Origin: a virus
Length of the DNA stretch: 64,000 nt
Direction: 5' to 3' (one strand)
Virus genome (UHGV): UHGV-0133741
Shown: one piece after another, positions 36,446 to 40,322 of the stretch
How the letters are laid out: the number at the start of each line of letters is the position of its first letter
Numbering within the stretch: position 1 is the stretch's first letter
Notes under the pieces: generated by a model
What the model was told of the DNA's origin: nothing
The model's input: only the letters and a program-made list of their open reading frames with translations
Databases searched by the model: none
Translations under genes and position numbers: made by a program

Positions 36446-37195
36446 ATGACAATACACAAAATCCCCAAAAAATTTTGGGACAACAAAATAGTTGAATGGC
36501 CATGTCCTAATTGTGGGCAAACAACTTTAAAAATTTTAGATGAATCTTTCATCTGTAAGGATACAGCTGAAACTGTCAAAATGGAGGGTGAAGAATGGTT
36601 TGACTTAGAGTATACAAGCTCGGTATTCAGTTGTATGTCACAGTGCGTAAGACCTCAATGTAAGGAGGTAGTGGCATGTATCGGCAGAAGTGGTCTAGAA
36701 CAAGATTGGTGCGAACATAAAGGGCTTAGTTACTATCGCTGGTATGAACCATTAAGTTTTACTCCTGCGTTAAAGCTATTTCTTATCCCGAACATGTGCC
36801 CTGAAGACATAGCCTTGCCTATAAACACCTCGTTTGCACTAAGCACAATTCATCCAGGTGCCGCTGCAAATCTAATAAGAACATCTGTAGAACGGTTACT
36901 TACTGCTATCGGGGTAACTGAAACAAGCGAAAATGGGAATAGAATTAACCTCCATAATAGAATTGAGATGATCCCTAGTGAACATTCTGGCTTTAAAAGC
37001 CTGTTATTTGCGATTAAGTTTCTTGGAAATGCGGGTAGCCACCGCTATGAAAAAGTTACCGCAGATGACTTGGATAACTCATACGAGATCATGAATTTTA
37101 TTCTAAGTGATTTATATTCGGATAATCGCAAAAAGGTTAGTGAGTTAGCTCATAATCTAGACAAAAAATTTAATCCTCAAAAACAAAAATGTTGA
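36446..37195 (+). CDS. Zn-ribbon protein with DUF4145-like C-terminal domain
   Basis: 249 aa; N-terminal CPNCG..C..CMSQCVRPQC; C-terminal AANLIRTSVERLL...AIKFLGNAGSHR...YEIMNFIL resembles DUF4145 as I remember it; AT-rich. Confidence 0.55.
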   Translation: MTIHKIPKKFWDNKIVEWPCPNCGQTTLKILDESFICKDTAETVKMEGEEWFDLEYTSSVFSCMSQCVRPQCKEVVACIGRSGLEQDWCEHKGLSYYRWYEPLSFTPALKLFLIPNMCPEDIALPINTSFALSTIHPGAAANLIRTSVERLLTAIGVTETSENGNRINLHNRIEMIPSEHSGFKSLLFAIKFLGNAGSHRYEKVTADDLDNSYEIMNFILSDLYSDNRKKVSELAHNLDKKFNPQKQKC

Positions 37196-37312
37196 CAACT
37201 GACAAGTGACTTCAGTCAGAATCATCACACGCCCGGTACGGATGGATCCCTTTTCAAATATTCCATGGACGGCACAGTCTGAGTACCGGGCGCTACCTTC
37301 AGCTGTATTGCT

Positions 37313-37340
37313 AAGCCGCCACTGGTGGCTTTTCTTTTTT
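37313..37340 (+). terminator. intrinsic terminator/attenuator between island genes
   Basis: AGCCGC-CACTG-GTGGCT hairpin followed by TTTCTTTTTTT, ending 14 nt before the next start codon. Confidence 0.45.
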
Positions 37341-37353
37341 TGTAGGGGGCGCT

Positions 37354-37995
37354 ATGGATAAGAAAATATGCGTTGTTTCGATGAGCGTCGGCAAACCGGC
37401 GTCAATGACTGCTGCATGGATCAACAACGAGCTGATAATGGCTGAGCGGACCAGCTACCCTGAACGCCGCCGCGACATGGAACTCCAGCTGCTGCGCGAA
37501 TTGCGAGAAAAAGAGGAAAAGGGTTTTATCGTGCTGGTGGAAGAGGAAAACAGCTTTATTACTGGTCGAGTTGGCCAGCGTGTAAGGTTGCGCGATCCCT
37601 TCATGAACGGCAGGCCGGTACTGATTGAAGCAATGCAGATTTACAAGGAGCTGGAACGCCAGAAAGCGATCAAGTTACCGCGCAAGGAATCCGGCAAATA
37701 CATCCTCCACCAAAGCATCTTCGATTCCGAACACGATAAAAAAGGCGATGAATTTTTCAACATCAACTGGAGCGAAATAACGACAGAGCATGTTCTGACG
37801 TTACTATGTTGCTTTGCGACGGAATACAACAACGTTGCCAGCGCCGACTACATCAGGGCAATGGCTGGAGAAGTTGAGGCCCGCCAAGAACCATCGTTAC
37901 TAAGTCCACTGATTAACATAATTCTGGGCACCCAGATACTGGAACAAAAAAAAGTGCCGAAAGGGGTATTAACAGGCAAGCATAATTATTTTTAA
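37354..37995 (+). CDS. hypothetical protein (no recognised domain)
   Basis: 213 aa; strong AGGGGG RBS at a 4-nt spacing; charged, helix-rich composition; AT-rich. Confidence 0.55.
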   Translation: MDKKICVVSMSVGKPASMTAAWINNELIMAERTSYPERRRDMELQLLRELREKEEKGFIVLVEEENSFITGRVGQRVRLRDPFMNGRPVLIEAMQIYKELERQKAIKLPRKESGKYILHQSIFDSEHDKKGDEFFNINWSEITTEHVLTLLCCFATEYNNVASADYIRAMAGEVEARQEPSLLSPLINIILGTQILEQKKVPKGVLTGKHNYF

Positions 37996-38088: not shown

Positions 38089-39225
38089 ATGAAAGCAATG
38101 GGGAATGAAGTTTATCAAAGTCAAAAATGCAAGTTGAAATATTCAAAATCTCAAATTGATAGGGCTGCTCAATTGATAAGGCACGGGTGTAGTGACGAAG
38201 AAAGGCAGCAAGCTATTGAAATGATACAAAATTTCCGTGAGCTGCATCTTTATCCATTAATGCTCATGAAAAATCATTTAGCAAGAGCAGCTGCTAAGGT
38301 TGACAAAGACAAAAAGATTCTCGTTGCAAGAAGACTTAAGCGACTTTCTACCATAATAGATAAACTAGAGCGTCCTAGTCTTGATGGAGGCAGAACTAGC
38401 AATGCAATTAAATTAACACGAATGCAGGACGTTGGCGGATGTAGGGCCATTGTCAGAAACTTAGACCAGTTGATACAGCTAAAGGAACGTCTTTTAAAAA
38501 GCAAATCTGTTCATAGGATTGTTAAAGAGTATGATTATCTTACTCCCAAAGACAGCGGCTATAGTGGAATCCACCTTGCATACAGTTGCTTCGATCAGAA
38601 AGAGGATCAATATCCGTGGCGAAAAACAAAGATTGAGATACAGTTAAGAACTCAATTGCAGCATGCTTGGGCTACTAGCCTTGAAATAATTGATACCCTT
38701 GAAGGTATCAAGCTGAAAACTTCAAGTGAAGGGCATCCAGAATGGAGACGATTTTTCTATCTAGCCGGATGTCTTGTAGCGCACGACGAAAAAGCCTGCA
38801 CTCTTGATGAGCTAGTTGTATCTCAGTATGAAGGCGAGCTTAGAGAGCTGGAACGGACTTTATCTGTACGGAGGAAACTAAGCACATACACCCTCGCCTT
38901 AAATTTAACTTCTGACGCGAATTTGATTAAGAAGTTGCCAAAAAATCATAAGGGGCATTACTTAGTAACAATGAGAAATGCAGAAAACAAGCCCAATACA
39001 AAAAACAAAAAAATGTTCCTAGTGTCTGTTCGCGCATTTAAAACAAAAGAAGCAGATGAAGCCCTTGAGGCCTTAAATAAAGACGATTCTGATCCTAATG
39101 TATTGATATCTGTTCTCGTTGCTACAGATAACATTAAGTCACTAAAAAAAGCCTACCCCAACTATTTTGGCTCAACAAACCAGTTTACAAAATTCTTAGA
39201 TAAGCATCTTCGTAACGAAGGATAG
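38089..39225 (+). CDS. fused RelA/SpoT-type toxSAS (CapRel-like toxin-antitoxin)
   Basis: 378 aa; synthetase motifs RRLKRLSTIIDKLER, DVGGCRAIV, DYLTPKDSGYSGIHL, EIQLRTQLQHAWATSLE in RelA/SpoT order; extra Cys-free C-terminal domain of about 100 aa. Confidence 0.7.
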   Translation: MKAMGNEVYQSQKCKLKYSKSQIDRAAQLIRHGCSDEERQQAIEMIQNFRELHLYPLMLMKNHLARAAAKVDKDKKILVARRLKRLSTIIDKLERPSLDGGRTSNAIKLTRMQDVGGCRAIVRNLDQLIQLKERLLKSKSVHRIVKEYDYLTPKDSGYSGIHLAYSCFDQKEDQYPWRKTKIEIQLRTQLQHAWATSLEIIDTLEGIKLKTSSEGHPEWRRFFYLAGCLVAHDEKACTLDELVVSQYEGELRELERTLSVRRKLSTYTLALNLTSDANLIKKLPKNHKGHYLVTMRNAENKPNTKNKKMFLVSVRAFKTKEADEALEALNKDDSDPNVLISVLVATDNIKSLKKAYPNYFGSTNQFTKFLDKHLRNEG

Positions 39226-39233
39226 TTGCTTAA

Positions 39234-39258
39234 TTTTGCCCGGTAACTCCGGGCAAAA
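39234..39258. terminator. bidirectional intrinsic terminator
   Basis: TTTTGCCCGG-TAACT-CCGGGCAAAA perfect 10-bp stem with A/T runs on both sides, between convergent genes. Confidence 0.65.
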
Positions 39259-39261
39259 TTG

Positions 39262-39510
39262 TCAATCTGCATTCAGGAGTAATGCATTATCTATGATGAT
39301 CTGCTCCCATTCTTCGAATGCCCGGTCGCGGACGCCCTGGGGAACGCTGTTAGTTTTGAAATCGACGACCGTACGCCATTTCCCGTCCGGACGGTACATG
39401 CGCAGAGCTTTACTTCCCCCTTCCCTGCGCACCTCAACGTTATGCTTGTCAGCAAACTCTTGTAATGCTCGTAGCGTCCCATGCTTTACTGTGTAGTATC
39501 GCTTTTTCAA
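39262..39510 (-). CDS. small protein with weak HicA/YcfA-like resemblance
   Basis: 82 aa; EF.DKHNVEVRREGGSKALRMYRPDGKWRTVVDF... roughly parallels the HicA fold but lacks the GSHH histidine; start overlaps upstream gene stop. Confidence 0.4.
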   Translation of the reverse strand: MKKRYYTVKHGTLRALQEFADKHNVEVRREGGSKALRMYRPDGKWRTVVDFKTNSVPQGVRDRAFEEWEQIIIDNALLLNAD

Positions 39511-39947: not shown

Positions 39948-40322
39948 ATTATGCGACGTCCGGCGAACCGGGCATTGAAACAGAGTAATCACCTTCATCC
40001 GCTACAGTATAGTTCTGCTCAACAATCAGTTGAGCGGCATTCTCGTTAGTATTCTGGGCTAAAACATTGACGCATCAGTGTTGTTCTGAAATGAGCGTAT
40101 CACCTCTGTGCAGGTGGACAAATCCAGTAAACCACTACAGTCTTCAAAGGTTTTGAAGTTTTAGTTTGTTCATTAGTCAGAGCCTGTACCTATTTTGTCT
40201 ATAATTCAACCTGTGTTAATAGTGAAAGTGAACGTATCAAAATCAAGCAATTACACAAATCGATGTACAGGCTCATTGGCACTTGAGGAATCTGAGGACA
40301 ATTACGCGGTAAGGTTTATGCT

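Follow-up and report, generated by a model that had tools for sequence, protein, structure and literature searches.

A widespread CapRel allele with a diverged sensor surface between mat and lxc on a P1-like phage-plasmid

The window analysed here, a stretch of 64,000 nucleotides of UHGV virus genome UHGV-0133741, is a P1-like (Punavirus) phage-plasmid. Downstream of Cra, Cre, C8 and Ref, the ORF listing of the window contains an open reading frame of 378 aa at 38089..39225 on the plus strand, which an earlier note had read as a CapRel-like fused toxSAS. The locus raises two questions, namely whether this gene encodes a functional defence protein of the CapRel family and whether such a protein would respond to the same phage proteins as the type member, CapRel-SJ46, which was described by Zhang et al. 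in Nature in 2022 and 2024 (PMC9712102, PMC11578894). CapRel serves as the textbook case of direct recognition of phage proteins by bacterial immunity, with a presumed arms race between its sensor domain and phage capsids. Earlier work has described the CapRel family, its mechanism and structure, its residence in P1-like prophages and how often it occurs on P1-like phage-plasmids of E. coli (PMC9712102, PMC11578894, bioRxiv 10.1101/2025.09.12.675607). New here is a widespread CapRel allele with a diverged sensor surface within this known family; no new mechanism is put forward.

The coordinates given in the earlier note agree exactly with the ORF listing, with the exception of the start, which probably lies three codons further downstream. 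The annotations of homologues, the crystallised protein and a GGATGA element together place the true start of capRel probably at M4 of the longest ORF (38098), which gives a predicted protein of 375 aa. The second ATG is the annotated start in the RefSeq protein that is identical to the window protein, WP_254521328 (pLH85-a-A), and in SJ46 J46_0058. The crystallised protein of PDB 7ZTB (MGSEVYQ...) begins at the Met equivalent to window position 38098, and the Shine-Dalgarno-like element GGATGA is located 5 nt 5' of this ATG; no such element was seen ahead of ATG 38089. An in-frame upstream ATG is also present in SJ46 capRel and is unused in the annotation. The three MKA codons are probably untranslated. 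Residue numbers below are counted from the start at 38098 unless SJ46 numbering is indicated; through residue 298 they coincide with those of SJ46, and beyond it they are higher by one. A promoter scan of the 100-bp mat–capRel spacer found nothing convincing and fewer sites than in shuffled sequences, and the one 9/12 match falls inside the end of mat. Some blocks of this spacer are conserved between the window and SJ46 alleles. The features of the locus are summarized in Table 1.

Table 1. Features of the capRel locus and of the encoded protein, with coordinates in the window
Feature	Coordinates	Strand	Details
mat (maturation control), left border of variable slot	37354..37995	+	95% identical to P1 Mat 32-250
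MKA, 3 in-frame extra codons of the longest ORF	38089..38097	+	start is the first ATG of the ORF listing
capRel CDS, 375 aa + stop (probable)	38098..39225	+	start is M4 of the longest ORF
toxSYNTH (RelA/SpoT-type pyrophosphokinase) domain, aa 1-272	38098..38913	+	77% identical to CapRel-SJ46 1-272
Pfam RelA_SpoT PF04607	38332..38676	+	residues 82-196 of the 378-aa ORF; E 3.1e-12, 47.2 bits, gathering score 27
G-loop catalytic tyrosine Y155	38560..38562	+	aligned to SJ46 Y155; invariant in family
anchor-1 helices alpha8-alpha9, aa 238-279	38809..38934	+	AF2 helices 238-255, 257-270, 274-277
pseudo-zinc-finger domain (pseudo-ZFD), aa 286-342	38953..39123	+	strand, strand, helix, strand; Cys-free
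YXXY motif Y353-P-N-Y356 (SJ46 Y352/Y355)	39154..39165	+	autoinhibition; conservation among 56 homologues
hairpin between convergent capRel/lxc stops	39231..39261	.	RNA fold -20.3 kcal/mol, z = -6.1 vs shuffles
lxc (modulator of C1), right border of slot	39262..39510	-	100% identical to P1 Lxc

The reading of the gene as a CapRel-like fused toxSAS was borne out by full-length comparison with the type member. BLASTP against SJ46 J46_0058 gave 276/371 identical residues (74%) with a single 1-residue gap, and the catalytic and autoinhibitory residues are kept. In a search of all PDB sequences, residues 4-374 of the 378-aa ORF matched residues 1-370 of 7ZTB with an E value of 7.7e-186, and 9ERV was likewise matched from end to end (E about 1e-185); the entry names given by Foldseek are 'Salmonella tRNA pyrophosphokinase CapRel' for 7ZTB and 'Salmonella CapRel bound to Bas11 Gp54' for 9ERV. 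The next-best structures are housekeeping small alarmone synthetases, which match the core only (E 1e-8, approximately 20% identity). In PADLOC the window protein has one full-length match, the candidate model PDC-S33 (E 3.9e-86, 288 bits), and CapRel-SJ46 matches the same model over its full length (E 7e-87, 290 bits). Because both proteins score equally over the full model, PDC-S33 corresponds to the CapRel family; the name is a bioinformatic candidate label only, and a literature search for it found no paper using it.

All four RelA/SpoT motifs named in the earlier note are present in the translation (RRLKRLSTIIDKLER, DVGGCRAIV, DYLTPKDSGYSGIHL and EIQLRTQLQHAWATSLE), and the PF04607 match lies above the gathering score. 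A family alignment was built from 56 homologues with 52-78% identity to the window protein. In SJ46 numbering, R79, R116, Y155, A351, Y352, P353 and N354 are invariant in all of them, and A77, L339 and Y355 are conserved in at least 90%, with Y355, the second Y of YPNY, reaching 98%. The alignment to a characterised CapRel that the earlier note had called for finds R79, R116 and Y155 in place; A77, V338, L339, A341, A351 and Y352-x-x-Y355 are also kept in the window protein. In CapRel-SJ46, R79 and R116 coordinate ATP, the substitution Y155A abolishes defence, and the protein is rendered constitutively toxic by Y352A and Y355A as well as by substitutions at the interface positions A77, V338, L339, A341 and A351 (PMC9712102).

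The second part of the earlier reading, a Cys-free C-terminal domain, was confirmed as well. Cysteines occur only at positions 11, 31, 115, 164, 225 and 234, with none in the last 103 residues. An AlphaFold2 model built on the alignment of the 56 homologues (pLDDT 87.1, pTM 0.83) predicts a pseudo-ZFD in this region. Its C-terminal elements are strands at 286-294, 307-315 and 335-342 and helices at 316-331, 343-352 and 356-371, the last two helices being separated by the YPNY turn. The predicted topology is that of the published CapRel pseudo-ZFD, with the helix located between strands 2 and 3 of a three-stranded sheet. The top Foldseek matches of the model are 9ERV_A (TM 0.86/0.94, rmsd 1.9 A) and 7ZTB (TM 0.84/0.92), each over about 360 columns, so that the CapRel fold is, according to the model, retained in the window protein. 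The model superposes on the open crystal forms; a closed, autoinhibited state would follow by analogy with SJ46. By the same analogy the anchor-1 helices are part of the predicted trigger-sensing surface. The window protein has every CapRel feature that is open to sequence analysis and structure prediction.

The position of the gene in the phage-plasmid is also that of the type member. The earlier note had connected the gene with P1-like Salmonella prophages, and this connection holds, the source of the CapRel type member being the Punavirus (P1-like) Salmonella phage SJ46, where capRel occupies the same mat–lxc slot. The left border gene is annotated as mat in SJ46 also. On the right, the minus strand downstream also encodes Ulx, which shares 98.6% identity with P1 Ulx, and the lxc stop codon is the exact point from which the DNA of the window, SJ46 and P1 is homologous again. 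The mat–lxc interval contains capRel alone in the window, in SJ46 and in pLH85-a-A; in P1 it contains res and mod, the genes of the EcoP1I type III restriction-modification system, and CapRel is absent. Because mat and lxc are core P1 genes, which are present in the CapRel-less P1 too, a gene for a separate antitoxin or partner is absent, and capRel is a single-ORF system in a slot where P1-like elements swap defence cargo. According to a DefenseFinder survey of 2025, CapRel or a dGTPase is common on the P1-like phage-plasmids of E. coli, and those of Salmonella mostly have a type III restriction-modification system (bioRxiv 10.1101/2025.09.12.675607). The hairpin between the convergent stop codons is possibly a bidirectional terminator; a simple terminator scan did not call it, a trailing T-run being absent. 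In SJ46 a different hairpin occurs at the equivalent place between capRel and lxc.

Two further peculiarities of this phage-plasmid were observed in the vicinity. An extra gene without counterpart in P1, SJ46 and pLH85-a-A is located immediately upstream at 36446..37195 between ref and mat; its product combines a Cys-rich N-terminus with a DUF4145 domain. This architecture is that of the defence RNase RAZR, a recently described protein to which the product shows only weak similarity. Further downstream, darB is reduced to a remnant of 44 codons and a chaperone-usher fimbrial operon is found in its place, an arrangement as in P1-like plasmids of Escherichia albertii.

The window allele is widespread and is the commoner CapRel variant of E. 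coli P1-like phage-plasmids. In PLSDB, 52 records, mostly E. coli P1-like plasmids, contain a protein of 95% or higher identity to that of the window, and 22 records contain the SJ46 allele, which is 74% identical to it. In a large protein collection the 90% cluster of the window allele has 313 members and that of the SJ46 allele 122; the window protein differs from the representative of its 313-member cluster (99% identity) at 5 positions, all of them conservative. A nucleotide search at 99% identity or above located the allele in 83 of 5,426 complete E. coli genomes, with 87 copies in all, of which 83 are plasmid-borne. A scan of species-representative genomes for related loci delivered three, from Kluyvera, an Erwinia MAG and Enterobacter sp. 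EA-1. In phage vB_EcoM-673R5 the window allele is annotated as two CDS fragments, and partial copies are found in some E. coli records. Given the split gene of vB_EcoM-673R5, some copies of capRel may be decaying or mis-sequenced.

Between the window and SJ46 alleles pN is 0.17 and pS 0.84, a value at which synonymous sites are saturated. This saturation makes dN/dS inestimable for most segments, and only the relation of pN far below pS was used. From the saturated pS together with the pN of 0.17 it follows that the two alleles are old lineages under purifying selection and not recent variants. Divergence is unevenly distributed along the protein and has been faster on the sensor surface. Identity to SJ46 amounts to 77% in the toxin domain and 64% in the C-terminal domain and is lowest (52-57%) in two stretches, residues 226-270, with 53-57%, and residues 286-330, with about 52%. 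Among the 56 homologues the mean column entropy is 2.03 bits in the C-domain versus 1.11 in the N-domain, with a peak at residues 241-330 and a low-entropy island at residues 346-360 around YPNY. Judged by these alignments, no other part of the CapRel protein varies as much as the sensor/antitoxin region. Hydrogen-deuterium exchange (HDX) in SJ46 had identified residues 240-268 and 288-366 as protected by the capsid trigger (PMC9712102). In these regions 36% of the positions differ from SJ46 (39/109 aligned columns), versus 23% elsewhere (Fisher p = 0.01). As the published HDX regions constitute a pre-specified test, this p value is the reliable one; substitutions are most strongly enriched at residues 240-335 (p = 5e-4), but this segment was picked with the data already in view.

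The trigger-binding residues mapped in SJ46 are for the most part kept. One trigger of CapRel-SJ46 is the SECphi27-like phages' major capsid protein, with L280 and L307 being important (PMC9712102), and another is the small protein Gp54 of Bas11, which is bound via alpha9 (L270, D273, N275, L276, K278, S279) and R314/K316 (PMC11578894). L270, D273, N275, L276, K278, L280, L307 and K316 are retained in the window protein, at positions that are highly variable across the family. The only changes here are K277I, S279K and R314K, and in alpha9 itself (270-279) 8 of 10 residues are identical to SJ46, the two differences being K277I and S279K. Changes are denser in the surroundings. The anchor helix alpha8 is heavily substituted, identity to SJ46 is about 52% across pseudo-ZFD residues 286-330, and the beta6-beta7 loop, which touches the capsid A-domain in the SJ46 model, carries the 1-residue insertion and about 8 substitutions. 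Because the sensor of the window protein is only 64% identical to that of SJ46, the SJ46 trigger is not transferable by homology. A partial overlap with the SJ46 triggers and a changed spectrum are equally conceivable readings. As alpha9 is nearly conserved, the window protein may still sense Gp54, and as the beta6-beta7 loop differs, it may no longer sense the SECphi27 major capsid protein (Gp57). It is quite possible, if short of probable, that the window allele senses one or several triggers other than the SECphi27-like major capsid protein and Bas11 Gp54 of SJ46, perhaps an unrelated phage protein or a phage-host complex as in CapRel-Ebc. A literature search for CapRel with P1-like elements or phage-plasmids found a survey listing CapRel and no paper testing the window allele.

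Taken as a whole, capRel is very probably a functional fused toxin-antitoxin and a single-protein abortive-infection defence of the P1-like phage-plasmid, with a mechanism like that of SJ46. Toxicity, the tRNA target and protection we infer from CapRel-SJ46. In the uninfected cell the C-terminal pseudo-ZFD would fold back on the toxSYNTH domain, as it does in CapRel-SJ46, and the YPNY turn would be placed between R79 and R116, with the ATP site blocked as a result. Upon infection, a newly made phage protein would bind the anchor helices as well as the pseudo-ZFD and hold the enzyme open. The open enzyme would then move pyrophosphate from ATP to the 3' CCA ends of tRNA, translation would stop, and the infecting phage would be unable to complete its cycle. 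The expected outcome is protection of the lysogen population and of the resident P1-like element.

A catalytic domain of this fold might also belong to a housekeeping small alarmone synthetase of the RelQ/RelP/YjbM type, which produces (p)ppGpp for stress signalling and is no toxin. These enzymes share the fold of the window protein, and weak matches to RelP/RelQ/YjbM structures (E 1e-8 to 1e-4) and to NCBIfam GTPPhKinYjbM were indeed recorded; the chance that the protein is one of them is nevertheless close to negligible, as the YjbM/RelQ equivalog model NF053588 gave 35.5 bits versus a cut-off of 320, the structures of small alarmone synthetases are 17-25% identical over the core alone whereas CapRel is 74% identical over the full length, and such enzymes are without the additional 100-aa pseudo-ZFD with YXXY. 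The position of the gene in the variable defence slot of a phage-plasmid also speaks against a housekeeping synthetase. Another proposal is that the protein is a toxSAS whose product is an alarmone, either (pp)pApp accompanied by ATP depletion (FaRel-like) or pppGpp, as made by the PANGU GRel effector Pag1B once a nucleoid-associated partner has activated it. The substrate does differ among toxSAS subfamilies (PMC9712102; bioRxiv 10.64898/2026.04.06.716658), but the catalytic domain resembles at 77% identity that of CapRel-SJ46, a protein shown to pyrophosphorylate tRNA in vitro (PMC9712102), and an alarmone product is very improbable here. No gene for a partner of the nucleoid-associated (NAP) type is present next to capRel, its neighbours mat and lxc being core P1 genes, and the protein has a cis-acting YXXY autoinhibition motif and a pseudo-ZFD, not the DNA-mimic domain of PANGU (bioRxiv 10.64898/2026.04.06.716658).

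In formal terms the gene is a toxin-antitoxin of a plasmid prophage with low copy number, and its main role might accordingly be sought in post-segregational killing, that is, in an addiction module keeping the P1-like plasmid stable. For addiction, P1-type elements rely on phd-doc. With toxin and antitoxin fused in one polypeptide, differential decay after plasmid loss cannot free the toxin, which makes an addiction role mechanistically implausible; moreover, many P1-like elements are devoid of capRel or have restriction-modification genes or another defence at this place. The SJ46 protein is stable and is activated by binding and not by proteolysis (PMC9712102), and the chance that addiction is the main role is small. 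The two-fragment copy of vB_EcoM-673R5 and the partial copies in some E. coli records might suggest an inactive relic, intact in the window by chance or beyond triggering by extant phages. Such a relic is scarcely to be expected in an intact ORF whose product has an identical counterpart in RefSeq and shares 99% identity with a cluster of 313 members, and the retention of all functional residues along with the strong signal of purifying selection also argues against it. A functional CapRel defence protein is the reading that we prefer.

If the window allele does sense other triggers, the two alleles, swapped at the mat–lxc slot, would equip P1-like elements with different phage-exclusion spectra. 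The allele would be a clean partner to SJ46 for the mapping of specificity substitutions, because it combines a sensor surface altered at about 40% of its positions with an identical catalytic and autoinhibitory framework and the same locus and type of element. It could also affect the susceptibility to therapeutic phages of E. coli with P1-like plasmids, many of which are clinical or poultry strains.

Among known systems the closest is CapRel-SJ46 (Salmonella phage SJ46 J46_0058; 7ZTB, 9ERV), of which the window protein is a full-length orthologue with one inserted residue. Catalytic, autoinhibitory and YXXY residues, fold and single-gene architecture are common to both, and both genes lie between mat and lxc of a P1-like element. 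CapRel-Ebc from Enterobacter chengduensis, compared here via its published description and its identity to SJ46, shares family and mechanism and shows that a CapRel about as far from SJ46 as the window protein (70% overall identity) works alike, but its sensor is 47% identical to that of SJ46, in comparison to 64% for the window sensor, and its trigger is T7 Gp0.4 complexed with host FtsZ and not a capsid protein (Nat Microbiol 2026, PMC13423816). PhRel/ATphRel (mycobacteriophage Phrann gp29/gp30) and FaRel2/ATfaRel2 would resemble the window system in having a tRNA-pyrophosphorylating toxSYNTH toxin and a related antitoxin domain, and a prophage-encoded defence would likewise recall toxSAS systems of the PhRel/ATphRel type (PMC9712102). 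Both are two-gene systems, whereas toxin and antitoxin are fused in the window protein, with no separate antitoxin gene. PANGU type I, finally, is characterized by an adjacent NAP sensor gene and a C-terminal DNA-mimic domain, both of which are absent from the window system (bioRxiv 10.64898/2026.04.06.716658).

The window carries a chaperone-usher fimbrial operon between ulx and the portal gene, at the site where P1, SJ46 and pLH85-a-A have the 6.8-kb gene darB. Because nothing of darB persists beyond its first 44 codons, with the fimbrial operon in its place, the element is without this anti-restriction gene, which one survey called universal in P1-like elements (bioRxiv 10.1101/2025.09.12.675607). 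The same layout, with the fimbrial operon and darB cut to a remnant, is shared by P1-like plasmids of Escherichia albertii. No Pfam match was found for the 182-aa ORF of the operon, which is possibly a fimbrial subunit, and no family match for the 315-aa protein that also belongs to it.

Features of the window around the capRel slot and at the darB site
Feature	Position	Strand	Remarks
DUF4145-domain gene	36446..37195	+	249 aa; inserted between ref and mat
Strong hairpin	39231..39261		between the stop codons of capRel and lxc, which are convergent genes; -20.3 kcal/mol, z -6.1
Fimbrial operon	~40000..48312	-	chaperone-usher type
315-aa protein	40323..41270	-	
DsbA-like thioredoxin	41661..42302	-	operon member
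182-aa ORF	42546..43094	-	candidate fimbrial subunit
PapD-type chaperone	43057..43749	-	operon member
Usher	43742..46183	-	operon member
darB remnant	48312..48184	-	first 44 codons; sole part left

The only phage-database record with the capRel allele of the window is Escherichia phage vB_EcoM-673R5 (ON470615.2, 8010..9109; 99.2% nucleotide identity). Its annotation splits the gene into two CDS and the tblastn alignment falls into three pieces; either the gene is frameshifted or the record contains sequencing errors. Among the 87 copies of the allele in complete E. coli genomes, four are chromosomal and not plasmid-borne, and at least one of these is partial (NZ_CP125883.1, annotated as hypothetical protein), a sign that P1-like elements may at times integrate, or be present there as fragments.

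On both strands the hairpin behind capRel has T-runs on its 5' side and A-runs on its 3' side; a simple terminator scan did not call it. SJ46 has a hairpin at the same capRel-lxc position, but it is unrelated to that of the window, and therefore each capRel allele carries its own hairpin along. On the other side of capRel, residues 1-36 of P1 Mat match 37242..37349, whereas residues 32-250 match 37336..37992 in a different reading frame, so that the Mat of the window (213 aa, as in the SJ46 and pLH85-a-A annotation) is without the P1 N-terminus; relative to the P1 reference, the reading frame differs.

The gene inserted between ref and mat is absent from P1, SJ46 and pLH85-a-A and present in some P1-like plasmids of E. 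coli. The N-terminus of its product is Cys-rich (C20, C23, C37; C63, C67, C72, C78), and a DUF4145 domain makes up the C-terminal part (Pfam E 1.6e-11). The protein has weak matches to PADLOC PD-T7-4 (E 0.005) and to PDB 9y9c, 'DUF4145 domain-containing protein' (E 0.46). PD-T7-4 is named once in a 2026 Nature paper (PMC13017515), apparently as the earlier name of RAZR, the defence RNase described there with a zinc finger, a DUF4145/HEPN domain and catalytic R146 and H154. Possible counterparts of these two residues in the window protein are R172-x7-H180 and K191-x7-H199, and the gene may be a second defence gene beside CapRel, distantly RAZR-like.
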